Shown: one piece after another, positions 11,607 to 28,593 of the stretch
Layout of the letters: each line of letters begins with the position of its first letter
How positions within the stretch are numbered: the stretch's first letter is position 1
NCBI GenBank assembly: GCA_043822705.1
Contig: JBDRBK010000033.1
Span: 1-37,999, forward strand
Direction: 5' to 3'
Source: Fidelibacterota bacterium
GTDB lineage: Bacteria; Fidelibacterota; Marinisomatia; Marinisomatales; TCS56
DNA length: 37,999 nt
Program-made: the position numbers and the translations under genes
The notes under the pieces: generated by a model
The model's input: only the letters and a program-made list of their open reading frames with translations
The model's database searches: none
Told to the model about the DNA's origin: nothing

Positions 11607-12568
11607 GCGATCGCCTCGGCGACATAGGTTTTACCGACCATCTGCTCGTATTTTTCTCCGAATGCTTCGCGCAGGGCGGAAATGGCCACTTCGACCATTT
11701 CATCATCCGGCTCCTTGGTGGTGATGCGCTGCAGCCACAAACCCGGAGCCCGCAGGGCGCGAAACAGCAACCGATGACCGTTGCGGGCGCTGATCTTAAT
11801 CACTTCGTAAGACAGGCCCATCACCAGCGGAATCAACGGCAGGTGCACCAGCAGGCGGATGCCCAGCGATATAGTTCCCAGCAGGGCCAGAACGATCGTA
11901 TCGATCAGGGCGAAAATCAGGATCGCCGACAACATCACGATAAACAGAAAGCTGGTCCCGCAGCGCGGGTGCTGGGTCGGAAACGACTGGGCGGTTTCAA
12001 TGTCGATATTCCGGCCCGATTCAAAATTATAGACCACCCGGTGCTCGGCGCCGTGGTACTGGAACAGGCGGCGCACATCCTTAAGCAGCGATATGATCGC
12101 CAGGTACAGGATGAAAAAGGTGATCCGCAGCAGGCCCGATACCAGGTTGAAAGTCAGGGCTTCTTTTTCGATGTCCAGTAATTTGGTGGTGATCCACATC
12201 GGCCCGACCATGAATAACAGCAATGCCAGACCGACGGCAAATACAATCGAGAATAAATTGGCCAGCTTGCCGGGTTTTTTAGCCTGTTCTTCCACGGGCA
12301 GAGCGACGTCGGCCGACCACTGCAGGGTGCCGAAACCGATCCGCATTGATTCAAACAGGGCGGCCATGCCTCGCAGGACCGGCTTTTTCCAGACCGGTTT
12401 CCTGTCGGATAGGGATTGGAATTCGTGGCGATCGATCTGCACTTTGCCTTCCGGGTCGCGCACCGCCGTGGCATAAGCCCCGGGGACGCGCATCATAACG
12501 CCCTCGATGACCGCCTGCCCGCCCACCAGGATCGCCGGCTTCATCAATAACAGAGATAAATTTCGCAT
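11603..12568 (-). CDS. DUF1385 (YqhQ-like) membrane protein
   Basis: [41 protein letters not shown]; usual position between rpmE and prfA. An alternative start is ATG 12544. Confidence 0.92.
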
Positions 12569-12574
12569 GGATAT

Positions 12575-12608
12575 AAAAAGGGCTCCCCCTTCAGATGAAC
12601 GAGAAGCC
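12575..12608 (-). terminator. Probable intrinsic terminator after rpmE
   Basis: Minus strand GGCTTCTCGTTCATCTGAAGGGGGAGCC forms a hairpin with G-U pairs, followed by CTTTTT. Confidence 0.55.
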
Positions 12609-12627
12609 GCATTTTGATGTTATTTGG

Positions 12628-12834
12628 CTACTGTGCTTTTTGCTGATATTTGCGATTGAATTTTTCGATCCGCCCGGCCGTATCAACCAGCTTCTGTTTG
12701 CCGGTGAAAAAGGGGTGACACTGAGAACAGATTTCAATTTTCTGATCGCCGATCGTATTGTATACCTGAAAGGTATTTCCACAAGCACAGGAAATTTTCC
12801 CTAATTTATATTCGGGATGAATTCCTTCCTTCAT
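12628..12834 (-). CDS. rpmE: 50S ribosomal protein L31 (zinc-binding type)
   Basis: [41 protein letters not shown] Shine-Dalgarno upstream. Confidence 0.98.
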
Positions 12835-12843
12835 TCCAGACTC

Positions 12844-14055
12844 CTATTCTAATTCTTTTAGTACGCGGGCTACGCGTTTGATTCCTTCGCGGATATTTTC
12901 AAATCCGGTGGCGAAGGAGAACCGGATATATCCCGGTGCGCCGAAACCATCGCCGGGAACGGTCACCACCTGTGCCTGATCCAGGATGTAATTACCCAGA
13001 TCGGTGGCGGTTTTGAGCACCCGACCGTCGACGCTTTTACCCAGGTAGGCCGTCACATCCGGAAAAGCATAGAACGCACCGCCGGGCAGGGCGCAGTTAA
13101 GGCCGGGGATTTCATTCAATAATTGTACCATCAGATCGCGGCGCTCCTGGAACGTCCGCCGCATTTCCTCCACCGGTGCCTGGTCGCCATCCAGGGCGGC
13201 GATGGCGGCCATCTGTCCGATCGAGTTGGGGCAGGACGTCGCCTGACCCTGATGTTTGGCCATGGCCTTGGCAAGCAACGGTTCCGCTACGGCATAGCCG
13301 ATCCGCCAGCCGGTCATAGCGTAAGTTTTAGACATGCTCAGGCAGGTCACGATCCGGGCGCCGACCGTATTTAACTTCTCGGCCGAGGTGAATGTTTCAC
13401 CGTAAACCAGTCGCTCATAACACTCGTCGGCAATCACCGTCCAGTTGTGCCGGGCGGCAATTTCCAGCAGGCGCACGGTGGCCACCGTGGACCAGACGCC
13501 GCCGGTGGGGTTGGAGGGTGAATTGATGATCACGCCACGGACGCGATCGGTGATCTTGGCCTCCAACTCGGCGAAGTCGGGCTCCGAGTGCTGGTCCGGC
13601 AGAGTGGCGACAAACACCGGTTCGGCATCGGCCAGCCGCACAAACTCCGGAAACGAGACCCAGTAAGGCGTAAACACGATCACCTGATCGCCCTTTTCAA
13701 ACAGGGCCTGACAGGCGTTGAACAGACTGTGTTTTTCGCCGTTGGACACGACCACCATCTCGGGAGTGCATTGCAGCCCGTTTTCCCGCTCCAGCTTCCG
13801 GCAAATCGCTTTGCGTAATTCCGGCATGCCGGCGCCGGCCGTATATTTGGTATAGCCGGCATCCATGGCTTGTTTGGCAGCCTCGCGAATATGAACCGGT
13901 GTATTGAAATCCGGTTCGCCGACGCTGAAATTGATTACGTCGACGCCCTGGGCCCGCAACTCATTGGCGCGGGCCGCCATTTCCAGCGTGAACGACGGCT
14001 GAATCCGCTGGATGCGGTCAGCCAGTCGGAGCGGTGGTTTAGTGTTGTTTACCAT
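12844..14055 (-). CDS. aspC: PLP-dependent aspartate aminotransferase (class I/II)
   Basis: GEPDFNTP, YTAGAGMPELR, NSPSNPTG, DECYE, SMSKTYAMTGWRIGY (PLP lysine), GAFYAF, VPGDGFG. Confidence 0.9.
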   Translation of the reverse strand: MVNNTKPPLRLADRIQRIQPSFTLEMAARANELRAQGVDVINFSVGEPDFNTPVHIREAAKQAMDAGYTKYTAGAGMPELRKAICRKLERENGLQCTPEMVVVSNGEKHSLFNACQALFEKGDQVIVFTPYWVSFPEFVRLADAEPVFVATLPDQHSEPDFAELEAKITDRVRGVIINSPSNPTGGVWSTVATVRLLEIAARHNWTVIADECYERLVYGETFTSAEKLNTVGARIVTCLSMSKTYAMTGWRIGYAVAEPLLAKAMAKHQGQATSCPNSIGQMAAIAALDGDQAPVEEMRRTFQERRDLMVQLLNEIPGLNCALPGGAFYAFPDVTAYLGKSVDGRVLKTATDLGNYILDQAQVVTVPGDGFGAPGYIRFSFATGFENIREGIKRVARVLKELE

Positions 14056-15089
14056 TCGTGACGTTTTTTATGATATTCCTCGGTATTGAAGCGTGAATCG
14101 TCGTCCGGTGTTTCCTCGACCGGTTTGCGCCGGAGTTGACGGCGCGGTGGTGGGGGTGGTGGCGACGGTGGCTGAGGCGGTGGCGGACCCTGTTCCTCGA
14201 TTTCGAATTCCTCGGAAAACACCTTGCGCTTGAGACCCGGTCGCCGGGGCGGCCGGTGGGGGGCGCTGGTACGTCGATGCTCGTGAGGCCGGGGAACATC
14301 ATCCATGCCGATGCCTTCGTTCTCGGGCAACATTTTTTCGTCGAAGTCGTCCGGCGGTTCTTTATCGCCGATTTCGCCCTTGATCGAATCTTCGTCAAAG
14401 GAGAACATGGCCGGATTGTAAAGGCCGTAAATCGCGCCGTATCCGCGGGTAATACCGTTGCCGACACCGAGATAATTGGGCAGAATGAAATTAGTCCGGA
14501 ATTCACCGTTGAAGGCACCCCAGTAAGTCTCGTCGACCGTCTTGGGGAAAAGCGATGTCAGGCTCAACCGGGTGAAAATCTTCTCTTCCAGTTCCATACC
14601 CATCTCGCGCGCCAGAAAAACAATATTCTGGCTCAACAGCCGGCTCAGGTAATTGAGTTTTTCCATGCTGTTCAGGTAACGGTAACGAATGCCGGTGGTC
14701 TGGTTCAGCGCCACCCAGGGCGTGATAAAGCGGTACCTGATCATGCGCGTCAGGGGACGGAATAGATCGTCGCGTTCGTCGACATCGGTATCCAGCACCT
14801 GGAAGGTGATGTTGCCAAAATCCAGGAAATCGAATTTATCGACCAACGACAGGATTGGTTCCACGCCTTCGTTGATGCCGACGATGTAAATCTGTTCGTT
14901 GAGTATTTTCACCTGCACCCGGGGATAGAGAAATTGGTCGCGGTAGCGACCGTCCAGAAGCGGAATGATTTCCTCGTCCGGAAACTGGCGCATGAAGACG
15001 CCTTTTACCTGATACGGCGTCTTTTTAACCGGTTTATCGGTTATGATCTTTAAAGTAACAGTCTTAACAGCAGTGTATGAAGATTCCAT
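14049..15089 (-). CDS. Stand-alone Cas6b-like (RAMP) protein with a long acidic/Pro-rich C-terminal tail
   Basis: Residues ~1-222 follow the Cas6b motif series: LYPRVQVK, IVGINEG, YRFITPWVALNQ, LSRLLSQNI, FNGEFRTNFILPNYLGVGNGITRGYGAI (Gly-rich loop). Residues ~223-346 are low-complexity. GAGGTG Shine-Dalgarno upstream. Confidence 0.8.
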   Translation of the reverse strand: MESSYTAVKTVTLKIITDKPVKKTPYQVKGVFMRQFPDEEIIPLLDGRYRDQFLYPRVQVKILNEQIYIVGINEGVEPILSLVDKFDFLDFGNITFQVLDTDVDERDDLFRPLTRMIRYRFITPWVALNQTTGIRYRYLNSMEKLNYLSRLLSQNIVFLAREMGMELEEKIFTRLSLTSLFPKTVDETYWGAFNGEFRTNFILPNYLGVGNGITRGYGAIYGLYNPAMFSFDEDSIKGEIGDKEPPDDFDEKMLPENEGIGMDDVPRPHEHRRTSAPHRPPRRPGLKRKVFSEEFEIEEQGPPPPQPPSPPPPPPRRQLRRKPVEETPDDDSRFNTEEYHKKRHEW

Positions 15090-15135
15090 TGCTACACCTC
15101 GCTATAATTAATTAATCAAACAAATTAATTACCTT

Positions 15136-16383
15136 CTACTGGCTCATCGTATTGAGAAATTCCTCGTTGGTTTTGGTCCGTTTCAGCCTTTCCAGAAGGA
15201 ATTCCATCGCCTCGATAACCGTCATCTCATTAAGTAATTTGCGCAAAATCCACAAACGAGCCAACTCCTTTTTTGTCAAAAGTAGCTCTTCTTTGCGAGT
15301 TCCCGAGCGGATCAGGTCGAAGGACGGAAAAATCCGCCGATCACTCAGCCGTCGGTCCAGAACCAGCTCCATGTTACCGGTTCCTTTGAACTCTTCAAAG
15401 ATGACATCGTCCATCCGGCTGCCGGTGTCGATCAGGGCGGTGGCGACGATTGTCAGACTGCCACCCTCCTCGCAATTCCGGGCCGCACCGAAGAACTGTT
15501 TGGGTTTCTTCAGGGCGTTGGAATCGATACCGCCGGACATGATTTTGCCGCTATGCGGGATAACGGCGTTATGAGCCCTCGCCAGCCGGGTGATGCTGTC
15601 CAGCAGGATAACCACATCCTTGCCGAATTCCACCATCCGTTTGGCCTTTTGCATTGCCATTTCGGCGACACTGACATGACGCTCCGGCGGTTCATCGAAA
15701 GTTTAACTGACCACCTCGGCATCAACATTCCGCCGCATGTCGGTCACCTCTTCCGGGCGCTCGTCAATCAGCAGAACGATCATTTCCACTTCGGGATGAT
15801 TCTTGCGAATCGCATTGGCAATTTTTTGCAGAAGCACGGTTTTACCGGTCTTCGGCTGGGCCACGATCAGGGCCCGCTGCCCACGGCCGATCGGCGCGAA
15901 CAGATCCAGAGTCCGGGTGGAAAGATCCTTGGGATCGAACTCCAGGTTGAAGCGCACCTCCGGGTGGTAGGGCGTAAAATTATCAAATAAAATAGCCTGT
16001 TTGATCTGTTCCGGTAAAAAACCGTTGACATTATCGACTTTCAACAAGGCATAAAAACGTTCTTTTTCCTTGGGCGGCCGGATTTCGCCGCTGACCAGGT
16101 GGCCGGTACGCAGGCCGAAACGTTTTATTTGCGATGGACTGACATAAATATCATCGGGACCCGGCAGATAATTGAACCCGGGGCTGCGTAAAAATCCGTA
16201 GCCGTCCGGAAGGACCTCAAGGACACCACGAGCTTTGATCGATTCGTCTTTTTCTTCCTGAAGTTCCAGGATTTTGACGATCAGCTCCTGTTTGCGTCGG
16301 CCGGAATATCCTTGCACCCCCAAATCCTGCGCCAGCTTGGTCAGGTCCTTGATTTTCAGGGCCTGAAGTTCATTAACATCCAT
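15136..16383 (-). pseudogene. rho: Transcription termination factor Rho, interrupted by one in-frame TAA at 15703-15705 (nonsense allele or sequence error)
   Basis: Track ORFs 15703-16383 and 15136-15660 are in the same frame. Read-through gives ...[15 protein letters not shown]..., versus the conserved EVVSSTFDEP, for 415 codons in total. Other Rho motifs are intact: [70 protein letters not shown]. Confidence 0.93.
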
Positions 16384-16469
16384 GAGGATTCCTTTTTTGT
16401 GTATCTTTGAGTAGTATATCTACAGAAAAAACCTTTTCCGGAGTATAAAATCTGAGAACTTAACGTACG

Positions 16470-17747
16470 TTAAATTAACCCATCCTCAAACAAAAATCCA
16501 AATTTTAAATAGATTTTGTCAGCGATATAATGGCTGCCGAAAATCAGACCGGTCCTTCCACCGCCGGTCAGTTCCAAAATCCGGTCGAATGCAGCTTCGA
16601 TCGGCAGAATTTCATCCGGGCAGACACCCTGTTCGGTCAGGCTGGCGGCTAACCGTTCCGCCGTCATCAAACCATGGTCCGGAGAGGAAGTGACCACCAG
16701 ATATTTGAACGCGCCCCGCAGCACCGCCGCAATCGAACCGATATCCTTATCGGCTTTCAATGCCAGCAGCCCGATCGGTTCCCCGGTGGAAAACTGCCGC
16801 ACCCCGGCCAGCGCCGACCGGATGCCGTGGGCATTATGAGCGACATCGTAAAAAATTACCGGTTTCCGTGAAAGCAGTTGCATCCGTCCCGGCCATTTTA
16901 CGGTTTTCAAGCCTTTGTGAATGATTTCGTCAGGGATCTGCCGGTCAAAGGCTCGCACCGCTTCCAAGGCGGTCACGGCGTTCGACATCTGGTGCTGCCC
17001 GAGCAACGGCGTGGTAAATTCCCGCGCCCGCCAGCGGAATGTCGTACCACCCGCCAGATCAACCTTTGGTTCCTGCTGCGGGAGCCGCACCGGAATTATG
17101 GCAGCATTACGCTGGCCGGCAATTTCCTTCAGCACGATTGCGACTTCCGCTGTCTGGGGCGCCAGAACCAGTGGAACACCGTCCTTGATGATTCCCCCTT
17201 TTTCCCGGGCGATTTCGACGATATGACGGCCCAGGTACTCAGTGTGATCAATATCCACCGGCGTAATTACGGTCACTGCCGGCTGAACAATATTTGTGGA
17301 ATCCAAGCGCCCGCCCAGACCGGTCTCAATCACCGCAACGGTAACCTGGCACCGGGCGAAGTACCAGAAGGCCAGGGCGGTGGTGGCCTCGAAAAAAGTC
17401 GACTGAATACGGTCAATGTCAAGGCGGAAACTGGTGATAAAATCCACAATGTCGGCATCGGCGATCGGCGTTCCGTCAACGCGGATGCGTTCATTAAAAC
17501 GGATCAGGTGCGGCGATGTATACAGACCGACCCGGTGACCGGCCGTCCGCAGGATCGCGGCGATCGTGGCGGCGGTCGAACCCTTGCCGTTGGTACCGGC
17601 AATATGAATTAGCGGGTATTCCAGTTGCGGATTTCCACAGGCCGCCGCCAGGTCCCGGGTGTGCGTCAGTCCGACCTTGATGCCCAGGCGCTGCAGGTCG
17701 TACAGCCAGTGCAACAGTGCTTGAATATCGGTGGCGTTAGCAGTCAT
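16470..17747 (-). CDS. folC: Folylpolyglutamate synthase/dihydrofolate synthase
   Basis: HIAGTNGKGST, GLYTSPHL, FNERIR, ETGLGGRLDSTN, DHTEYLG, EKGGIIK, WPGRMQ, DVAHN. Confidence 0.96.
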   Translation of the reverse strand: MTANATDIQALLHWLYDLQRLGIKVGLTHTRDLAAACGNPQLEYPLIHIAGTNGKGSTAATIAAILRTAGHRVGLYTSPHLIRFNERIRVDGTPIADADIVDFITSFRLDIDRIQSTFFEATTALAFWYFARCQVTVAVIETGLGGRLDSTNIVQPAVTVITPVDIDHTEYLGRHIVEIAREKGGIIKDGVPLVLAPQTAEVAIVLKEIAGQRNAAIIPVRLPQQEPKVDLAGGTTFRWRAREFTTPLLGQHQMSNAVTALEAVRAFDRQIPDEIIHKGLKTVKWPGRMQLLSRKPVIFYDVAHNAHGIRSALAGVRQFSTGEPIGLLALKADKDIGSIAAVLRGAFKYLVVTSSPDHGLMTAERLAASLTEQGVCPDEILPIEAAFDRILELTGGGRTGLIFGSHYIADKIYLKFGFLFEDGLI

Positions 17748-17809
17748 TTTAACGGATATTGGCAGTTACAGAATTAATTCTCAGCCGAAAATATATTACC
17801 CGGAAGGGA

Positions 17810-19300
17810 TTAATTACCCTCGGCCAAAATCGTGTCTCGGGTATTCTTGAATTCTACGATCGCCTGGTAAACTGCTTCGGCGATCTTCTGCCGGTAGGAC
17901 GGTTTCTTCAGTAATTTTTCTTCTTCGGCATTGGATAAAAAACCGGTCTCGATTAAAACGTTGGGCATGCTGGCGCCGACCATCACATAAAATTCCGCCT
18001 GTTTGACACCGCGATTCTGTGAACTGATTTTTTTCGCCAGTTGATTCTGAATCGCCGCTGCCAGTCCTTCGCTTTCCTTGATGAAGGCACTTTGGGCCAT
18101 CGTTGCCATGATCAGAGCCTCGTTGCTCAAAACTGAAAAATTGTTTTCCTGTTCCTCTAACTTGATCACCTCGTTTTCCCGGGCAGCCACTTCAATTGCG
18201 TCGTCAGTCTTTCCCTGTGACAGGAAGTAGGTCTCAAATCCGCGGACCTTTCGATTCTCGGCACCATTGGCGTGAACGCTGACAAACAGTTTACCGTTGT
18301 TGGCGTTGGCGATTTTTGGCCGTTCGAGCAATGGGATGAATACGTCCTCATCGCGTGTATAAACAACTTTAATAGTAGTATTTTTCTCCAGCAATAAGCC
18401 GACCCGTTTGACGATATCCAGATTGATATCTTTCTCCTTGGTTCCGTACCGGCCAATCGTTCCGCCGTCCTTGCCGCCGTGTCCGGCATCCAGAACCACC
18501 GTATCCATATACCAGCGGTCGCGCAGGTCTTTCAGACGGGCCATACTGTCCATTACCGGTGTGCGCAGGGTGATCACGATTTCCGACGGCTCCTGCGTCT
18601 GGTACACTTCGTGGGCCTCGATCTTCGGCCGCAGTTGGAACGCCACCTGGGCCGACTCGTCCAGTTGGTCCACCAGAATCCTCCGGATCGAACTGCCGAG
18701 CTCCGAACGCACCAACGTCGACGAATCGGCCAGGCCGTTGGCCACTGTGATATAGAACCAGCCGTTTTCATGGACAAATGAGCTTAGATTGCCCTCGGGA
18801 AACACCGCTCGGGTCTGCAACCGGATTATCGTGCCGTTGGTCTTTTCTTCAAAGGTGACACCGGTGATGTTAAAATTAATCATATCCACGTCCAGCAACT
18901 GCCGGCTGGAATTATAAAGCAGTCCGGGAATCACCGTTTTTCCGAGGATAGAAAAAAATGTTTCCGCCGGAATGTAGACATCTTCGCCTACGGCCTGAGT
19001 ATAGGTCGGCAGTTGGTAGACCTGCTCATCGACCATAATGAAGCTGGACTGGGCCGAAATTTTCACCCGGTGATTGTTAAGATACAAAACGATTTTCTGC
19101 CGCTCGGGATTGACATAGTACCGGCACGACAGAATCCGCGCCAGATCGATGGAAGAAAAATAAGTGCCGGGACCGCGTTCCAGCGTTTTTAATTTATCCT
19201 GGTGCAGGTCGGCGCGAAATAAAACACGGATCGGCGCCGCCGACAGCAGCGTTTGACAAACCAGGAAGATTATCAGGAGTAGATTACGGGCTTTGACCAT
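17810..19300 (-). CDS. N-acetylmuramoyl-L-alanine amidase (Amidase_3, AmiC-like) with N-terminal accessory domains
   Basis: Signal peptide; VVLDAGHGGKD, EKDINL, TRDEDVFIPL, FVSVHAN, GFETYFL, LIETGFLSN, so the zinc ligands are intact. Confidence 0.93.
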   Translation of the reverse strand: MVKARNLLLIIFLVCQTLLSAAPIRVLFRADLHQDKLKTLERGPGTYFSSIDLARILSCRYYVNPERQKIVLYLNNHRVKISAQSSFIMVDEQVYQLPTYTQAVGEDVYIPAETFFSILGKTVIPGLLYNSSRQLLDVDMINFNITGVTFEEKTNGTIIRLQTRAVFPEGNLSSFVHENGWFYITVANGLADSSTLVRSELGSSIRRILVDQLDESAQVAFQLRPKIEAHEVYQTQEPSEIVITLRTPVMDSMARLKDLRDRWYMDTVVLDAGHGGKDGGTIGRYGTKEKDINLDIVKRVGLLLEKNTTIKVVYTRDEDVFIPLLERPKIANANNGKLFVSVHANGAENRKVRGFETYFLSQGKTDDAIEVAARENEVIKLEEQENNFSVLSNEALIMATMAQSAFIKESEGLAAAIQNQLAKKISSQNRGVKQAEFYVMVGASMPNVLIETGFLSNAEEEKLLKKPSYRQKIAEAVYQAIVEFKNTRDTILAEGN

Positions 19301-21238: not shown

Positions 21239-21956
21239 TCCCGGTTAATATTTGGGCCGGGTCCGAATAGTAGCCTACGACAAGCCCCAACCAGTGCAAC
21301 GGTCGGGCCACCAGATCAAAATATAATCTTCCCGGATATTGCAGATCCTGTTCCCAGCGGATAACGCCGCGATAAAGTGAGCCGCTTCCGATTCGCACCC
21401 CGGTCTGAATTACCCGGGGTAAATCATCAGCCAGGCGGGACATCCCACCACAATAAATATTTTCAAGGATTGTAAACCAGGATATATTTTCTTCCAGCAA
21501 AATCGCCCAGCTTAATTGACCGGCCCAGGCCGACAGTGTTCCGTAATTCCTTATGCCGACCTGGTAACCGACCAGACCAATTCCCAGGCGGCAGCGCTGG
21601 CTATAACGATAGACAGCCTCGATATTCCCGAGTCTTTCCTGATACAGTTGCCCCGCCCCCAGTGTTTGTCCGCTGAGCGCGAATGACCAGCGTCCGACCG
21701 GCAGGCTGATAAACAACGATTGGTATTCGAGTTCCGGAACGGCGAAAGGAACGGCGCGGGTAACCAGCAGCATAATATTGGGGCTATTCGAATCGCGTTC
21801 TTCATAATCAGCCGGATCGATTGCGATAATCCGGGCGGAACTGCTGTTAAACAACAGCGGCGAACCGCCGCTGAACTCGAAGGCGGCCCGCAAGATGCCG
21901 GCGCAGCTTGACAGCCAAACCAATATTAAAAGAATCACCTGACACATATGACACAC
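21132..21956 (-). CDS. Hypothetical outer-membrane beta-barrel protein
   Basis: Signal peptide followed by AFE; PFAVPEL, G...YQE, IRNYG and HPQLGLS motifs, recalled from the small barrel that precedes the HhH-barrel gene in FCB genomes. Confidence 0.55.
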   Translation of the reverse strand: MCHMCQVILLILVWLSSCAGILRAAFEFSGGSPLLFNSSSARIIAIDPADYEERDSNSPNIMLLVTRAVPFAVPELEYQSLFISLPVGRWSFALSGQTLGAGQLYQERLGNIEAVYRYSQRCRLGIGLVGYQVGIRNYGTLSAWAGQLSWAILLEENISWFTILENIYCGGMSRLADDLPRVIQTGVRIGSGSLYRGVIRWEQDLQYPGRLYFDLVARPLHWLGLVVGYYSDPAQILTGIGFTVKGISVEYHTITHPQLGLSRVFSLGFGSARR

Positions 21957-22058
21957 CCGACCCTAATTCAAAATACAATTGGGGTAAGTTACAGCCGGCA
22001 GCTGAAATTTACAATTCCGTTGGACTCTTTTAGATATTTACCCCGCGAATTGTGCCGG

Positions 22059-22964
22059 TCAGGGCCGCGACGCCTGCCGTGCGCCGCGAATTACACTCTC
22101 AACCACCAGATAACGGATAAAAACCGGCAGCGGCATAACCGCTGTGATCGACCGGACAAGTAATCGTACTACACAATTGAATGCCAGATAGCCCTTGATC
22201 GAATCGATCCAGCCACCGGCCAGCTCGTTCTTGAATTCGGGGTATCGTTCCAGCAGCCGTGGCAGATTATCGTGGCCGTAGTTTTCCATGGCCCGACAAA
22301 ATTCGGCAACCGAGCGTTGATGGTAATGTTCGGCAACCGCTGTGCTTGAATAATGCAATCCCCTCGGATAAATCCGATACAATCGGATGGCCAGATCGGT
22401 ATCCTCGCCGCCGTAGGTGGTTATTGTTTCATCGAACAGGCCGGCTTGGACGAGCGCCGTTCTGCGGACAATTGTGTTATGAAAAAGGAAATACCGGAAA
22501 TCAATCGGTCTGTCTGCGTCGGTCTTGCGGGCGCCGCGCCAGTTACTGTAAAAATACCGATCCAGACGATTGGTCGTAGATTCGGAAGGCAGTTGACTGT
22601 CGCCGATCACCCCGATCACGGTCGAATCGGCAAACTCGGGCAGCAACACCTTGAGCCAGTCCGGCCGGACGACCATATCGCTGTCCAGAAATGCCAGGAA
22701 CTCGGCGTCCGTCGCTTTTATACCGCTGTTGCGCGCCGCCGCCAAGCCCCGGTTGGATTCATGCCGCAGTAATTTAATCCGGTCGCCGAAACCGGCGATA
22801 ATCGTCGCGGTCGAATCGGTTGAGCCGTCGTCAATGGCAATTATCCGGATTTTTTCCGGCGGATAATCCTGAGCCAGCACCCCGCCGAGGCATCTTGAGA
22901 CGACTCCGGCCACATTACGGCAGGGAATTATTACCGCAACTTCCGGAAACTGATTTAAATCCAT
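22059..22964 (-). CDS. Glycosyltransferase family 2
   Basis: VAVIIPCRN, IDDGSTD, NRGLAAARNSG, FLDSD (DxD), GGEDTDL. Confidence 0.92.
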   Translation of the reverse strand: MDLNQFPEVAVIIPCRNVAGVVSRCLGGVLAQDYPPEKIRIIAIDDGSTDSTATIIAGFGDRIKLLRHESNRGLAAARNSGIKATDAEFLAFLDSDMVVRPDWLKVLLPEFADSTVIGVIGDSQLPSESTTNRLDRYFYSNWRGARKTDADRPIDFRYFLFHNTIVRRTALVQAGLFDETITTYGGEDTDLAIRLYRIYPRGLHYSSTAVAEHYHQRSVAEFCRAMENYGHDNLPRLLERYPEFKNELAGGWIDSIKGYLAFNCVVRLLVRSITAVMPLPVFIRYLVVESVIRGARQASRP

Positions 22965-24040
22965 CCGGCCTCCCGATAGTAGCGGTACAGCACCTCCGCG
23001 GTCTGGTGCAGATCATGGTATTGCACCACCCAGGCGCGGGCCCGGCGTTTATATTCCAGTATCTTTTGTTTATCCCGGACAAGATTTCGCAGATCATCGT
23101 ACAACGTCGTTCCGGTGGTATTGACGAATGGATGGTCCGGAATAAAAGCTACATACGGCGGTACCAGTTCGGTCGCGCAGCACAATCCCATGCTCAAAGC
23201 CTCCACCGAATTCATGCCGTAGCCCCAGCCGCCGCGATTATGCACCTGATCGATCAGGATGTCACAGGTCTGTTTGATCGAACGAACTTCCGCATGCGGC
23301 CGGTTTTCCAGCAGAATGAATTCAATCCCTTCCTCCCGGTTTAACTGTTCACAAATGGGAATTATCGTCTCGCTGCCTTTGTAATAACGGTCGGTCGGAC
23401 TGTGACAGATGCGGATCGGATCGTTCACGGCCGGAACCGGCGCGAATTGACCGGTGTCAAAAGGCAAAAACAAGTAGCGCAGTTTGGGGTGTTTATTCAT
23501 TAAATCCAATTCGCTGGTGACATTCAATCCGCTCAACCGGTCGATAACCGGCAGCACACCCCGGGTCCGTAAATCCTGGCCGTGGTAAGCACAGACGATC
23601 GGTTTTCCGCGAGCGGCCAGTTTTCGCGCAAAACGACCGTCGCGATAAAATTCGAGTCCCCACTCGAAATGAATAATATCAAAATCCAACAACCCGTATT
23701 TCCGGATTGCCGGCTCGACCTTGAAATGCCAGAGCCAGTCACGGAATTGGAAATACCGGTCCTCAAGCCAGCTGTTGGGCCACCACTCCGGCGGATAACC
23801 GGGGCGCTCGGAATAGTCCCCCAGTTCACCCCGGTAACGTTGGTAATAACGGTGTCGCCAGCGCATATAGCGGGAATTTGCCGCCACCAGCGGCAAGTCC
23901 AGGCAGATACCGGGATCGTAGTCGTGTTTAGTCCGGTACAGCGTAATAAACAGGCATTCGTTGCCCCGGGCCCGGTGGGCCTTTTGCCACAGACTGAGGG
24001 TGCCGACGGTATTTTCAGGGGCGATGTACAGTATTTTCAT
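22955..24040 (-). CDS. Glycosyltransferase, GT-B fold (GT4-like)
   Basis: MKILYI start, YHGQDLR, ICHSPT...KGS, DILIDQ...GYGMNSVEALSMG, AWVVQYHD. Confidence 0.8.
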   Translation of the reverse strand: MKILYIAPENTVGTLSLWQKAHRARGNECLFITLYRTKHDYDPGICLDLPLVAANSRYMRWRHRYYQRYRGELGDYSERPGYPPEWWPNSWLEDRYFQFRDWLWHFKVEPAIRKYGLLDFDIIHFEWGLEFYRDGRFARKLAARGKPIVCAYHGQDLRTRGVLPVIDRLSGLNVTSELDLMNKHPKLRYLFLPFDTGQFAPVPAVNDPIRICHSPTDRYYKGSETIIPICEQLNREEGIEFILLENRPHAEVRSIKQTCDILIDQVHNRGGWGYGMNSVEALSMGLCCATELVPPYVAFIPDHPFVNTTGTTLYDDLRNLVRDKQKILEYKRRARAWVVQYHDLHQTAEVLYRYYREAGWI

Positions 24041-25143
24041 GCCGGAAACAAACTATGGTAAAATTTACAGATTTTTTCTTTCAGTTCATCGCGGCCGTAT
24101 TTTGCCGTAATCAGACGCCGCCCGTTGCACCCCATTTCCGCCCGCAGTGCCGGTTGCCGGTACAGGCTCAGAATCGTTTCACTGACCCGCAGGGGAACGA
24201 GATCGGGTAACACAATCCCGGTTTCACCCTCGGCGACCAACTCCTCGGTGAATGGCGATCGTCCGCAAATCACTGGTATACCGCGCGCCAGAAATTCCAG
24301 TATTTCCGGCTGCCGCCCGCGCTGGAAATATTCATTTTCATTCGGCGTGGCCAATCCAATTACCGCCGTATCGGCATACGCACTCCAGCCGGCCGGACCG
24401 GCCAGAATCACAGCTTCTTCCAGCAGCATGTCCTGAATGGTCACCCGCAGAATCGGCAGGAAATCCTTTGAAAAATGTCCGGTTAACACCAGTACCGCCT
24501 GTGGCAATTCCAGCCGGACCTGAAAAAAAGCCTGCAGAATGCAATTGACATCGGCAGGATGGCTCAATTCACCACCATAAATAATGATCGGCAATGAATC
24601 CGGCAGGGCGTCACTGGAAACTGTAATTTCACCAGGATAATCACCGATCCAGACTTTACGCCGGCAGAAACGCCCGATTCCGGCCAGTGATCGCGGCGCC
24701 GCCACGATCAGCCCATCGATAAAAATTACTCCTATAATTTCGATGATTTTAAGGACACCCGCTTTAAATCTGGCCAGCAGGGAATCGGTGTTGAATTTCC
24801 AGAGAAAATAATGAAATGTCGGTCGGTGAGCATCATAAATAATGGCGGCATTGGTGAACAACCGGATACACCAGCCCAAAATCAATAATTCCGGATCGTG
24901 CAGATGATAAATCCGGGCGCGCGACTTGAACGCCAGGTAATAACACTTGATGATCCGTGCCAGCCGCCAATGCTGGCGATAAGTCACGATTTTTATCCCA
25001 GCCGGTACGTCCGGAAGACCATCTCCGGGCATGATGATGGTCTGGTTTTCGCAGCAGTCGCTCAGCGCCAGTGCTTCCTGCAAGGTGCGTCGATTCGGCA
25101 TTGCGGAATATATCGTCAAGTGACAGACGTTCGCTATTTTCAC
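24037..25143 (-). CDS. Glycosyltransferase family 4 (divergent)
   Basis: VCHLT, IYHLHDPELL, IIYDAH, IIYGG, LEFLARGIPVI, ETGIVL, RAEMGCNGR; GTG start. Confidence 0.75.
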   Translation of the reverse strand: MKIANVCHLTIYSAMPNRRTLQEALALSDCCENQTIIMPGDGLPDVPAGIKIVTYRQHWRLARIIKCYYLAFKSRARIYHLHDPELLILGWCIRLFTNAAIIYDAHRPTFHYFLWKFNTDSLLARFKAGVLKIIEIIGVIFIDGLIVAAPRSLAGIGRFCRRKVWIGDYPGEITVSSDALPDSLPIIIYGGELSHPADVNCILQAFFQVRLELPQAVLVLTGHFSKDFLPILRVTIQDMLLEEAVILAGPAGWSAYADTAVIGLATPNENEYFQRGRQPEILEFLARGIPVICGRSPFTEELVAEGETGIVLPDLVPLRVSETILSLYRQPALRAEMGCNGRRLITAKYGRDELKEKICKFYHSLFPA

Positions 25144-25176
25144 ACTATCACCGCCGCGATCGGATCATTAATCTGA

Positions 25177-26754
25177 CTAAAGCTCAAACCGTGCACCCAG
25201 TGGTCCGCTTAGATCAATTCCGGCGGCGGCCGCCGCCTGTCGCGCGCAGTCAGCCAAGCGCCCGCTCCGGATTATTTCCCGGGCGGCGGCCAGGTCGGCG
25301 GCAAATACCCGATCCTCCCGGGCGTGGTCGATTTCCGCGCGGATACAATCATGGCAGGCTTCCAGAATCGGACTGGATTGCAGCGGTTCACGGAAATCGA
25401 AGGCCTGGGCGGCCGAAACCAGCTCCACGGCCAGAATGTTTTCCAGATTATCAATAACCTGCAGCAGTTTCCGTCCGCTGATCGAGCCCATGCTCACATG
25501 GTCCTCTTGTCCCAGTGAGGTGGGAATGCTATCGGCGCTGGCGGGAAAACAGAGGTTTTTATTTTCGCTGACCAGGGCGGCCGAGGTGTACTGGGGAATC
25601 ATGAATCCGGAATTGATGCCGATGTCCCGCATCAGCAATTTGGGCAACCCAGAAAATTCCCCATCCAGCAGCAGGTAGGTACGTCGATCTGAAATATTGC
25701 CCAGTTCACTGGCAGCCAGCACGGCGTAGTCCAGCGGCAGGGCCAGCGGCTGACCGTGAAAATTGCCGCCGCTGATCGTTGTTCCATCGGCCAGGATCAC
25801 CGGGTTGTCGGTGACGGAATCCAGCTCGACCAAGACCGTGTCCAGCAGATGGCGCCAGGCAGTGCGGGAGGCTCCGTGCACCTGGGGCATGCAGCGCAGT
25901 GAGTACGGGTCCTGCACCCGCTGGCAATCGGCGTGGGAAGCGGTCATCGCCGATCCCTGCAGCAAGCGACGCAGGCAATAAGCCACATGCCGGGAACCGT
26001 CGAAAGCACGTAGCGAATGCAGTTCATCCGCAAACGGCCGGACCGAGCCGAGTAATGCCTCCAGCGTCATGGCGCCGATAATATCGGCATTATCCAGGCA
26101 GTTCTGAAACCGTTCCAGAGCCAACACGGCATGAGCGGTAATGAACTGGGTGCCGTTGATCAGAGCCAGACCTTCCTTGGCGCCCAGCCGCAGGGGAGCC
26201 AGTCCGGCCACCGTCAGCGCTTCACCACCCGGTCTAATCCGGGCGCCAGCATGAATTTCACCCAGACCGATCAACGGCAGGAACAGATGAGCCAACGGCG
26301 CCAGATCCCCGGAAGCGCCTACCGATCCCTGAGACGGGACTACCGGTGTAATATTATTGTCAACCATCCAGATGATGCGCTCCAGCGTGGCCGGACGGAT
26401 ACCGGAATGGCCCTTGGCCAAAGCCTGTATTTTCAGAATTAGCATCAGGCGGGCGATTTCAACCGGTACCGGATCGCCGACACCGGCACTGTGGCTGCGC
26501 AGGATATTGGCTTGTAACCGCTCCGTGTCGGCAGCGGAAATTGGGGTGGTACAGAGTGGTCCGAATCCGGTATTGATCCCATAGACGGCCTGAGTACCGG
26601 CAACGATTTTGTCGACGATCCGGCAACTTCGCTCGATTTTTTCCCTGGTAGCGGCAGTAATTTGCCCGACGCACTTTCCGCGAGCAATATCCAGGGCAAT
26701 ACGCGGAGTCAACTGCTGTTCGCCGTAGTTGAAATTTACTGGTTCGCGGCTCAT
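25177..26754 (-). CDS. hutH: Histidine ammonia-lyase
   Basis: VYGINTGFG, LRSHSAGVG, GSVGASGDLAPLAH (MIO-forming ASG), KEGLALINGTQ, VQDPYSLRCMPQVHG, SGGNFHGQP, QEDHVSMG. Confidence 0.95.
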   Translation of the reverse strand: MSREPVNFNYGEQQLTPRIALDIARGKCVGQITAATREKIERSCRIVDKIVAGTQAVYGINTGFGPLCTTPISAADTERLQANILRSHSAGVGDPVPVEIARLMLILKIQALAKGHSGIRPATLERIIWMVDNNITPVVPSQGSVGASGDLAPLAHLFLPLIGLGEIHAGARIRPGGEALTVAGLAPLRLGAKEGLALINGTQFITAHAVLALERFQNCLDNADIIGAMTLEALLGSVRPFADELHSLRAFDGSRHVAYCLRRLLQGSAMTASHADCQRVQDPYSLRCMPQVHGASRTAWRHLLDTVLVELDSVTDNPVILADGTTISGGNFHGQPLALPLDYAVLAASELGNISDRRTYLLLDGEFSGLPKLLMRDIGINSGFMIPQYTSAALVSENKNLCFPASADSIPTSLGQEDHVSMGSISGRKLLQVIDNLENILAVELVSAAQAFDFREPLQSSPILEACHDCIRAEIDHAREDRVFAADLAAAREIIRSGRLADCARQAAAAAGIDLSGPLGARFEL

Positions 26755-26919
26755 TATTATTTCTGTGATCCTGCTCTGTTAATTTCTAGTGACATTCGAT
26801 CCAGCTCGGAACAATAATCAATTACAAATATTTTGTTGGTTCCTGTTATGAATGATTAATTTATCACCGAATGATCAGAACACGGAATGAAATCTGCTAG
26901 CGACCGTTCCCAATAATCA

Positions 26920-28095
26920 ATGAATCTGTTTATTGTTCCATCCTGGTATCCCTCCCGGCTGCACCCCGAAAGCGGCAGTTTCTTCCGTGACCGGGCGGAA
27001 ATCCTTCAGGCCGACGGACAGCGCGTCACTGTCGTTGCCGCCGTTACCCACAGTACCAGGGACCTGTTCCGCTTCTACCGGGTAAAAATTGCACGCGGGA
27101 CGACCGCTCCCCAGTTTTCGGTTCCTACTATTTCCAGCGAAACACTAAATCCGTTCCCCTGCCAGCCACGTAATTTTTTCCGGTTCTACCGACGTCAGGT
27201 ACTGCGGCTTTGGGAACGCGCAGTCCGTTCCCAGGGCCGGCCGGAGGTGGTCCTGATCAATTCATCGCTGTGGGCCGGGGCCGGCCTGGCCGGAACGCTG
27301 GCAGCGGCGCACATTCCTTTTGTAGTCAGCGAACACTTAAAAGAATTCCTGCTGCCGGACGGTTTTACCCCGTTTCAACAAAGGATGATCCGGGAAACAT
27401 ACCGGCAGACCACCCGGATTATCGCCACCAGTCCGGCGCTCAAGGATGGTATCACCCGGCTATTTCCCGATCTGGCGGAGCGAATAACGGTTATTCCAAA
27501 TCCCGTCGATACGGAATTCTTCCGGCCCGGTCCGGTGAAACGAATACCGGAAAACAGTTTCACTTTTATTGCCATCGCACTGTTACGGCCGGAAAAACGG
27601 ATCGACCTGCTGCTGCAGGCCTTGGCGCTGCTGGAAAATTCAACGGTGACTACCCGGCTGATTGTCGCCGGCAGCGGCCCGGAGCAGGTGCGGTTGCAGG
27701 ATATGTCGCGACGACTGGGATTAGCTGAACGGGTTGAATTTGTTGGTTATCAACAACCGGCTGAAATACGGACTTTGTTACAGCGCAGTCAGGCGCTGGT
27801 TCTGCCCAGCACGGTCGAGACTTTCGGTGTCGCCCTGATCGAAGCGCAGGCCTGCGGCCTCCCGGTAATCGCTACCCGCTGCGGCGGACCAGAAGCGATC
27901 GTCCTGCCCGAAACCGGCCTGCTGGTGGATTGTGATAATATAGCCGCTCTGGCGGCGGGAATGGATAAAATGATCGCCGAATATACCAGGTTCCGACCGG
28001 AGCTGATCCGCGCGTCGGCGCACCAGCGCTATGGCGCTCAGGCCTACAGTGACACCTATCGGCGCTTGTTGACTGAAATCTCCGGTAATAAATAA
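26920..28095 (+). CDS. Glycosyltransferase family 4
   Basis: IVPSWYP, VVSEH, VIPNPVD, EKRIDLLL, LPSTVETFGVALIEAQACGLPVIATRCGG (EX7E). The only plus-strand gene. Confidence 0.93.
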   Translation: MNLFIVPSWYPSRLHPESGSFFRDRAEILQADGQRVTVVAAVTHSTRDLFRFYRVKIARGTTAPQFSVPTISSETLNPFPCQPRNFFRFYRRQVLRLWERAVRSQGRPEVVLINSSLWAGAGLAGTLAAAHIPFVVSEHLKEFLLPDGFTPFQQRMIRETYRQTTRIIATSPALKDGITRLFPDLAERITVIPNPVDTEFFRPGPVKRIPENSFTFIAIALLRPEKRIDLLLQALALLENSTVTTRLIVAGSGPEQVRLQDMSRRLGLAERVEFVGYQQPAEIRTLLQRSQALVLPSTVETFGVALIEAQACGLPVIATRCGGPEAIVLPETGLLVDCDNIAALAAGMDKMIAEYTRFRPELIRASAHQRYGAQAYSDTYRRLLTEISGNK

Positions 28096-28127
28096 CCCCC
28101 GGCGACGGTCAGCGCATCGCCGGGGGT
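28087..28127. terminator. Intrinsic terminator between the convergent GT4 and rplI genes
   Basis: 11-bp stem ACCCCCGGCGA (28095-28105) / TCGCCGGGGGT (28117-28127). On the minus strand it is followed by TATTTATT. Confidence 0.75.
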
Positions 28128-28149
28128 CAAAATATAAAACAGGGCGGCG

Positions 28150-28593
28150 TTACGCCTTGATGACGTATACTTTCAATTCCGGCTTAAGATCGGCACTGAT
28201 CTTGACCGGAACATTGTAGATGCCCAGCGCCTTGATCGGTTCATCCAGTAGAATATCATGTCGATCCACCGAAATGCCCTTATTCTCAAGGGCGGTGTGA
28301 ATATCCTGTGAAGTGACTGAGCCGAACATGCGTTCTTCTTCGCCCACCTGAACTTCGATGGTGAGCTCGATGCCGGTTAATTTGTTTACCGTGGCTTCCT
28401 GGGCTTTGCGTTCGCGACGCTCCCGCGCTTCGCTGATCTTTTTACGTTCTTCCGCCACCGCCAGGTTGCGTGTCGACGCCCGCAGGGCAAAACCACGCGG
28501 CACCAGATAATTACGGGCGTAACCGGGTTTGACTTTTACGATATCGCCGGCTTCGCCGAGATTTTCAACATTCTGGAGCAAAATTACATCCAT
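28150..28593 (-). CDS. rplI: 50S ribosomal protein L9
   Basis: MDVILLQNVENLGEAGDIVKVKPGYARNYLVP, MFGSVT, PIKALG. Confidence 0.98.
   Translation of the reverse strand: MDVILLQNVENLGEAGDIVKVKPGYARNYLVPRGFALRASTRNLAVAEERKKISEARERRERKAQEATVNKLTGIELTIEVQVGEEERMFGSVTSQDIHTALENKGISVDRHDILLDEPIKALGIYNVPVKISADLKPELKVYVIKA

Follow-up and report, generated by a model that had tools for sequence, protein, structure and literature searches.

The closest described relative of the gene reported here is Cas6b of Methanococcus maripaludis (MmCas6b; PDB 4z7k/4z7l), the Cas6 of a type I-B system, which has two interchangeable catalytic histidines, H38 and H40; the H38/H40 double mutant shows a drastic loss of activity and the Y47A mutant a reduced one (Richter 2012, PMC3479195). 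Cas6 of Sulfolobus solfataricus remains a nuclease although its active site contains no His; a network of basic residues does the cutting instead (PMC3652601). In many type III systems, Cas6 comes from a gene at another locus (PMC12669027), and derived or exapted forms of CRISPR-Cas have been described, such as an array-less cas5-cas6-cas7-cas8 set with a STAND NTPase in Streptomyces and the CRISPR-associated transposons (Koonin and Makarova 2022, PMC8730458). Here we describe a Cas6b-like gene of a Fidelibacterota bacterium, located in a 37,999-nt stretch of DNA (contig JBDRBK010000033.1 of assembly GCA_043822705.1; hereafter the window), whose product, the window protein, lacks the catalytic histidine pair and whose constant neighbour is rho, the gene of the transcription termination factor.

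The original prediction had assigned the gene to Cas6b from the order of its motifs, and this assignment holds. Pfam places Cas6b_C (PF17262; E = 5.5e-23, 81.8 bits against a cut-off of 39.4) at residues 115-220 of the window protein and Cas6b_N (PF17955; E = 5.2e-12, 46.2 bits against a cut-off of 25) at residues 8-105, both below the scores of canonical Cas6b copies in this phylum (124-125 and 93-102 bits). The best solved relative is MmCas6b 4z7k (HMMER, E = 2e-25, residues 27-220). From a 100-sequence alignment, AlphaFold2 (AF2) gave a model whose mean predicted local distance difference test score (pLDDT) is 85.6 and which exceeds 90 across residues 10-220. With this model, the check for a RAMP/Cas6 fold came out clearly: the top-ranked structure in Foldseek is 4z7k_A (E = 9.5e-19, template modelling score of 0.80 on the target), and VIA-align superposes model residues 6-223 on 4z7k with Z 24.0 and a root-mean-square deviation of 2.3 Å over 211 of 218 residues at 25% identity, followed by type IV Cas6/Csf5 (Z 16-17) and by other Cas6 enzymes (Z 10-14). 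Within the Gly-rich loop, all 100 sequences have G210, G216 and G218, and G208 is near-invariant. These results confirm that the window protein is a true structural relative of Cas6b, far beyond chance. It has in common with MmCas6b the two-domain fold, the Gly-rich loop and the core motifs YP.xQ, Y.F.TPW.aL and F.G.F..N..lP. In NCBIfam, no family matches the window protein; several of its close homologues are named "CRISPR-associated endonuclease Cas6" by NCBI and others "hypothetical protein", and the nearest clusters in the Protein Atlas are canonical Cas6b from Cloacimonadota and Bacteroidota.

The window protein differs from canonical Cas6b in its catalytic residues. In alignments with 4z7k (HMMER) and by MAFFT, the positions of MmCas6b H38, H40 and Y47 are occupied by P43, L45 (or an adjacent gap) and F53. 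Of 1.84 billion cluster representatives searched, 863 matched at E <= 0.001, and among the full-length representatives in the best 150 of these 863, H-x-H is present in 73 rows and absent in 48. A 100-sequence alignment was divided by the H-x-H motif itself into 64 canonical and 36 histidine-less rows, a split by which His stands at both columns in 64/64 canonical and 0/36 histidine-less rows by definition. Canonical rows also conserve N132 (100%), K161 (94%), K186 (97%) and, in the Gly-rich loop, K211 (97%), all of which are replaced in the histidine-less rows, 89% of which have Asn at position 211; at position 53, the Tyr of the canonical rows (94-100%) is Phe in the window protein. The histidine-less rows have conserved residues of their own, namely G47 (94%), R57 (89%), P182 and G191, and both groups share the core residues Y55, P56, Q59, Y119, F121, P124, W125, L128, N155, F193, G195, F197, N200, P204, G210, G216 and G218. 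These comparisons indicate that the fold and the loop were preserved while the known catalytic set was dismantled; the window protein lacks the H38/H40 pair, Tyr47 and the lysines at 161, 186 and 211 of canonical Cas6b. The window domain has a net charge of 0 and an isoelectric point (pI) of 6.4; the medians are +2 and pI 8.7 for the histidine-less rows and +7 and pI 9.3 for the canonical rows. Judged from its sequence, the window protein is not a CRISPR RNA (crRNA) nuclease of the known kind. A Cas6 fold without active-site His is also seen in Sso1437 of S. solfataricus (PDB 3zfv; VIA-align Z 9.9); however, Sso1437 is a working crRNA nuclease of another Cas6 subfamily and is encoded with CRISPR-Cas, whereas the window gene has no CRISPR context. 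The absence of the His pair and the constancy of rho as a neighbour had both been overlooked in the original prediction.

Unlike MmCas6b, the window gene does not adjoin cas genes or arrays and lies directly behind rho. In the window's order, rho is directly upstream on the same strand in 42/42 loci (L003-L044, several of which represent one contig fetched twice), and an aminotransferase gene lies downstream in 38/42, the exceptions being two contig ends and two loci of genus g7 with other DNA. Histidine-less loci from other orders and classes, with 24-40% identity to the window protein, likewise have rho directly upstream (17/17), and rho is near none of five canonical loci. For a view of the whole phylum, the positions from a profile search were combined with those from a Rho_RNA_bind search in an even sample of 201 genomes. 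Among 79 histidine-less genes in this sample, 69 lie on the same contig and strand as rho, 883-1301 nt past the Rho RNA-binding domain. The remaining 10 comprise two that are split from rho by contig ends and eight without a rho position among the matches listed, of which four adjoin rho in separately fetched loci. None of the 15 canonical copies in the sample is adjacent to rho. Rho adjacency is kept down to 24% protein identity, and adjacency to aspC is lost in several lineages. Thus, of the rho-cas6-aspC-rpmE synteny that had been proposed, the link between rho and the Cas6b-like gene is conserved, whereas aspC and rpmE are less constant; the distribution follows rho and is not tied to arrays. 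Two unusual proteins were also considered. A 672-aa "open frame" in G062 was rejected as a Rho fusion, as the rho TGA lies 12 nt before its in-frame ATG, and P0303 (693 aa), with about 165 N-terminal Cas6b-like residues and a RecD-like helicase, is probably an assembly chimera, as it has one member only, on one 5-kb contig.

In the window's order, 39/41 genomes match the window protein, and both misses belong to family f12, which has genomes of about 1 Mb. Of the 201 sampled genomes of the phylum, 91 have a match by single-protein search and 93 by profile search. The bit scores are bimodal, with 79 at 191 or above (78 of them at 229-315 and one truncated) and those of the canonical type below 175. 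Of the sampled families in the window's order, the 13 other than f12 all have the gene, which was found in 0/13 genomes of f12. Elsewhere in the same class it was found in 5/5 genomes of f19, 5/6 of f21 and 0/6 of f17, and in other classes in 4/6 of f22, 4/4 of f29, 2/2 of f31, 3/26 of f24 and 5/33 of f26. The Cas6b-like gene is therefore near-universal in the window's order and patchy elsewhere in the phylum sample; the genomes are metagenome-assembled genomes (MAGs), for which "not found" is not equivalent to "absent". No locus was retrieved when P0151, the clade's most divergent member, served as a single-protein query.

When 121 domain sequences were placed in a maximum-likelihood tree (IQ-TREE quick mode, SH-aLRT support only, drawn midpoint-rooted), they split at SH-aLRT 97 into 40 rows, all histidine-less, and 81 others (73 with H-x-H and 8 scattered rows without). 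The 40-row side contains every rho-linked locus fetched, and four canonical Cas6b genes of Fidelibacterota (L046, L047, L065 and L066) fall on the canonical side; the window protein is thus set apart from MmCas6b by a clade of its own. Branching within the histidine-less side tracks family, then order, class and other classes. Its named members are labelled Marinimicrobia, Neomarinimicrobiota or Fidelibacterota, bar one MAG labelled Lentisphaeria, and the cultured Fidelibacter multiformis encodes a member (RefSeq protein). The gene is single-copy. The dN/dS ratio is 0.02-0.03 for the domain (Nei-Gojobori, two within-order pairs with estimable dS) and about 0.12-0.18 for the tail described below (the three closest within-order pairs with estimable dS), figures that are rough because dS is saturated in most pairs. 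As estimated in this way, they show that the gene is under purifying selection, strong on the domain. As far as gene trees and gene order go, the gene is inherited vertically, like a housekeeping gene, with the rho operon and irrespective of CRISPR-Cas. The proposal of a vertically inherited, domesticated gene is upheld by its separate clade, by a topology that follows taxonomy and by its presence in 39/41 genomes, as against 8/41 for Cas1.

The relation of the gene to CRISPR-Cas was examined in its own genome and in other carriers. No array and no cas or mobile-element gene had been seen in the original prediction, which is right for the window, where a Pfam scan of the 32 long open reading frames (ORFs) found no cas or mobile-element family; the genome, however, does hold cas genes. 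It is a MAG of 218 contigs, 93% complete with 6% contamination, and its contig C65 carries a type I-E operon with its own Cas6e, cas3-cse1-cse2-cas7(CT1975)-cas5-cas6e (PF08798), at 21263-28196 (L045:3264-10195) and cut by the contig end. Because of the 6% contamination, the C65 locus might not belong to the window's organism. Cas1 was not found in the window's genome, and there was no Cas2, DevR or RAMP match either. An ad hoc k-mer scan, which was unvalidated on a known array and covered the window's genome only, detected no repeat-spacer array on the window's contig or in the whole assembly, which yielded two tandem repeats. Of the eight genomes of the order that have Cas1, G025 and G028 carry a second, canonical, His-bearing Cas6b, which in G028 lies near cas8b (type I-B locus). 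Moreover, none of five well-assembled carriers (three of them single-contig) has a Cas1, Cas5, Cas3-HD or RAMP match, so the gene is kept in genomes without detectable CRISPR-Cas.

Another difference from MmCas6b is a tail of 120 aa, which is seen in the window's order only; homologues of other orders have 219-263 aa. The tail (residues 226-346) is of low complexity, Pro-rich, and both acidic and basic. An alignment of 15 order-level sequences reveals four conserved short motifs between variable linkers (Table 1). In the AF2 model the tail has a pLDDT of 56-77, except for residues 261-270 (DVPxP; nt 14280-14309) at 92, and there is a terminal helix at residues 332-345. The model suggests that the DVPxP motif may pack on the Cas6b domain.

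The spacer between rho and the Cas6b-like gene ranges from 9 to 114 nt across loci, and the window's copy of 46 nt has no terminator-like site. This copy contains GUGUAGCA; directly 5' of the ATG stands GAGGTGTAGCA, in which GAGGTG resembles a Shine-Dalgarno sequence and precedes a conserved GTGTAGCA. GTGTAG occurs in the spacer in 13/17 order-level loci, at -8 to -91 from the ATG, and GTGTAG(C/T)A is found mostly at -8 and/or about -25, in two copies at some loci, with the surrounding spacer diverging. The spacer element has a single match in the window. GTGTAG(C/T)A could belong to the ribosome-binding region or serve in regulation. As a dispersed RNA target, GGTGTAGYA was rejected, since its 17 copies in a 3.34-Mb genome are at about chance level. 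A scan of 12400-17900 for promoters and terminators gave counts at chance level and nothing within spacers. One 151-nt metatranscriptome contig matches 14508-14653 identically and gives a weak hint of expression of the gene; no public sequencing run contained at least half of the words of the query.

What might such a protein do behind rho? Cas6 proteins are sequence-specific RNA binders that stay on their product, and MmCas6b reportedly recognises a repeat that is not a stem-loop (the work on 4z7k/4z7l); Rho, in turn, needs unstructured RNA. Because of these properties, and because the spacer is short and has no terminator-like site, we propose that the window protein was domesticated and, probably no longer cleaving, binds RNA and is expressed together with Rho; it would be a Cas6b descendant fixed behind rho, and we give this reading an even chance. 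Its function would then lie in host RNA metabolism. A Cas6b descendant would have left CRISPR-Cas early in Fidelibacterota (SAR406/Marinimicrobia) and become fixed directly downstream of rho. The protein, made with Rho from one transcript, would no longer cleave and would be a stable, sequence-selective binder of RNA or of an RNA-protein complex. It could act on the unstructured nascent RNAs loaded by Rho, masking or marking particular sites, and so work with Rho, or compete with it, on transcripts. In the window's order a disordered tail would have been gained, the four motifs of which would most simply be docking sites for partner proteins.

Several observations weigh against this proposal. 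In about half of the 201 sampled genomes, whole lineages included, the gene is missing, and Rho was found in 193/201 genomes as against about 79/201 for the histidine-less gene, which means that Rho does not need the Cas6b-like protein. In gene-less lineages, rho is followed directly by aspC-rpmE in 6/9 loci fetched and by other genes in three; rho-aspC-rpmE-(DUF1385)-prfA without the Cas6b-like gene is seen in L069 and L070 (f12), L071 and L075 (f17), L072 (f24) and L077 (f21). No Rho fusion was found among the longer proteins, and gene order alone would not establish a functional tie to Rho. The neutral domain and the loss of three near-invariant lysines would weaken RNA binding relative to canonical Cas6b, so that this part of the proposal is less secure. 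The loss of the histidines does not prove that cleavage was lost, since S. solfataricus Cas6 cuts without one, and the saturation of dS makes the estimates of selection rough. A predicted complex of Rho and the Cas6b-like protein (locus L005, 25-row alignment for each) scored a median of 0.48, and one unrelated control scored 0.61, a result that speaks neither for nor against binding.

A more specific form of the proposal is that, at the root of the phylum, a protein that recognised CRISPR RNA turned into a sequence-selective cofactor of Rho termination. Its histidine-less Cas6b domain would hold particular unstructured RNA sites and, in one order, its tail would recruit or block Rho or RNA polymerase; we regard this form as doubtful. 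Known protein cofactors and inhibitors of Rho include NusG, Psu, YaeO/Rof and Hfq. The likeness of the window protein to these, as a small modulator of where Rho acts, is by hypothesis only, and there is no relation in sequence or fold. If this form of the proposal is true, Rho would have a cofactor of a new class, and a single Cas6 would for the first time be seen exapted for housekeeping.

It is also conceivable, though unlikely, that the protein is still an endoribonuclease that processes host RNA with a different set of residues, such as R50 and R57, which are specific to the clade and lie near the former active site. The active site is plastic among Cas6 enzymes, as that of S. solfataricus illustrates (PMC3652601), R57 and G47 are conserved in the rho-linked clade beside the former His positions, and the fold and the Gly-rich loop are intact. 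However, Tyr47 and the three near-invariant lysines are replaced in addition to both histidines, and no candidate for a repeated substrate was seen, there being no array and the GTGTAGCA element occurring at chance level genome-wide.

Similarly improbable in our view is that the Cas6b fold serves as a protein-protein scaffold without an RNA role, and that the link to rho reflects operon hitch-hiking of a neutral insertion kept by translational coupling to aspC. Such a scaffold would accord with the neutral domain and its lost canonical basic residues, and with tail motifs of the short linear kind typical of protein docking. The gene is, moreover, dispensable in whole lineages (f12 and f17), where rho joins aspC directly. 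It is harder to reconcile with the strong purifying selection on the domain, with the retention of the Gly-rich loop and other Cas6 core residues, and with the persistence of rho adjacency at identities as low as 24% in the face of the loss of aspC adjacency in several lineages. Finally, a service to CRISPR-Cas in trans, by binding or processing crRNA for arrays elsewhere in the genome, is highly improbable: many type III systems do use a remote Cas6 (PMC12669027), the window's genome does hold the C65 cas operon and metagenome bins often lose CRISPR regions, but that operon is of type I-E and brings its own Cas6e, Cas1 is far rarer in the order than the Cas6b-like gene (8/41 versus 39/41), the five well-assembled carriers have none of the cas matches sought, a further, canonical Cas6b with the His pair stands beside cas8b where a genome has Cas1 and a type I-B locus, and the catalytic His pair is missing.

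The coordinates of the gene, its parts and its neighbours are given in Table 1. The ORF was re-derived as predicted, with its ATG start; all the motifs quoted in the original prediction are present in its translation, and the position of the Gly-rich loop, the 7-nt overlap between the Cas6b-like stop and the aminotransferase start, and a composition like that of the neighbours were all reproduced. The third-codon-position GC content is 0.62-0.66 for the Cas6b-like gene, 0.63-0.73 for most neighbours and 0.46 for rpmE. According to Pfam, the gene belongs to a run of one orientation comprising amidase, folC-like, rho, Cas6b-like, aminotransferase, rpmE, DUF1385, prfA and prmC genes, and the remaining genes of the window are also of housekeeping type (priA, H+-pyrophosphatase, pth, L25, prs, ispE/F/D, queA, ruvB and glycosyltransferases). 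Rfam finds a single tRNA in the window and nothing else, and Tandem Repeats Finder one short repeat (14141-14185), inside the Pro-rich coding stretch of the Cas6b-like gene.

Table 1. Features of the Cas6b-like gene and its surroundings in the window
Feature	Position	Strand	Basis or description
Cas6b-like gene	14049..15089	-	346-aa ORF, ATG start
Cas6b-like double-ferredoxin (RAMP) domain, residues 1-225	14415..15089	-	Pfam, PDB, AF2, VIA-align, alignments
Gly-rich loop GVGNGITRGYG, residues 208-218	14436-14468	-	translation
C-terminal extension, residues 226-346 and stop codon	14049..14414	-	tail alignment, AF2
Tail motif 1, FSFDE	residues 230-234		consensus P-x-x-F-S/H-F-D/N-E
Tail motif 2, DVPxP	residues 264-268		consensus D/E-V-P-x-P-K/R
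Tail motif 3, SEEFxIEE	residues 292-299		consensus S-E-E-F-x-I/V-E
Tail motif 4, FNTEEYHKKxH	residues 334-344, very end		consensus D-x-x-F/Y-N-x-x-E/K-Y/F-H-x-K-Q/R-H
rho/Cas6b-like spacer, 46 nt	15090..15135	-	sequence
rho, upstream neighbour	15136..16383	-	Pfam Rho_N, Rho_RNA_bind and ATP-synt_ab on its two halves
Class I/II aminotransferase (aspC-like), downstream neighbour	12844..14055	-	Pfam Aminotran_1_2, E 4.6e-72
folC-like ligase	16470..17747	co-oriented with rho run	Pfam
Amidase	17810..19300	co-oriented with rho run	Pfam

Two further observations concern rho itself. In the assembly, rho is split by an in-frame TAA at 15705..15703 (minus strand), codon 227 ("VVS*TFDEP"). The rho genes of relatives have Ser at this position in 57/59 ORFs, and the other two rows do not show that place; the contigs of 4/4 public runs examined have G and not T at 15704, which gives the Ser codon TCA. 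The TAA probably stems from an error of assembly or from a nonsense mutation particular to this strain. Upstream of rho, a conserved TTTG...TAATTTAATGTAA element is found at 16384-16469 and in the rho upstream regions of L003-L040, and it resembles a -33/-7 promoter of the Bacteroidota type. In the rho leader, this promoter-like element is followed by a short CCGG-loop-CCGG hairpin and a T-run, and this hairpin may be a rho attenuator.

The available text of PMC8730458 and of the 2025 classification (PMC12669027) mentions no rho-linked or housekeeping Cas6, and no published report of one was found in a search that left subscription-only papers and supplements aside. The exapted modules reviewed in PMC8730458 are, like the window gene, Cas components outside adaptive immunity, but they are multi-gene and mostly linked to defence or transposons, whereas the window gene is a single gene of Cas6b type in a housekeeping operon across a phylum. 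In most known exaptations of CRISPR-Cas parts, transposons, plasmids or other defence systems have taken over an entire effector module. If our proposal is true, it would point to a different route, in which an immune RNA-recognition fold was recruited into housekeeping RNA biology and a single Cas6 has kept its place over hundreds of millions of years in an operon of core transcription and translation genes. Furthermore, the automatic annotation of these proteins as "CRISPR-associated endonuclease Cas6" will inflate CRISPR counts in the phylum. In the dark ocean, few bacterial groups are as abundant, or as little studied, as SAR406, and the Cas6b-like gene offers a concrete handle on transcription termination in this group; as the cultured F. 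multiformis encodes a member, the question is testable at the bench.

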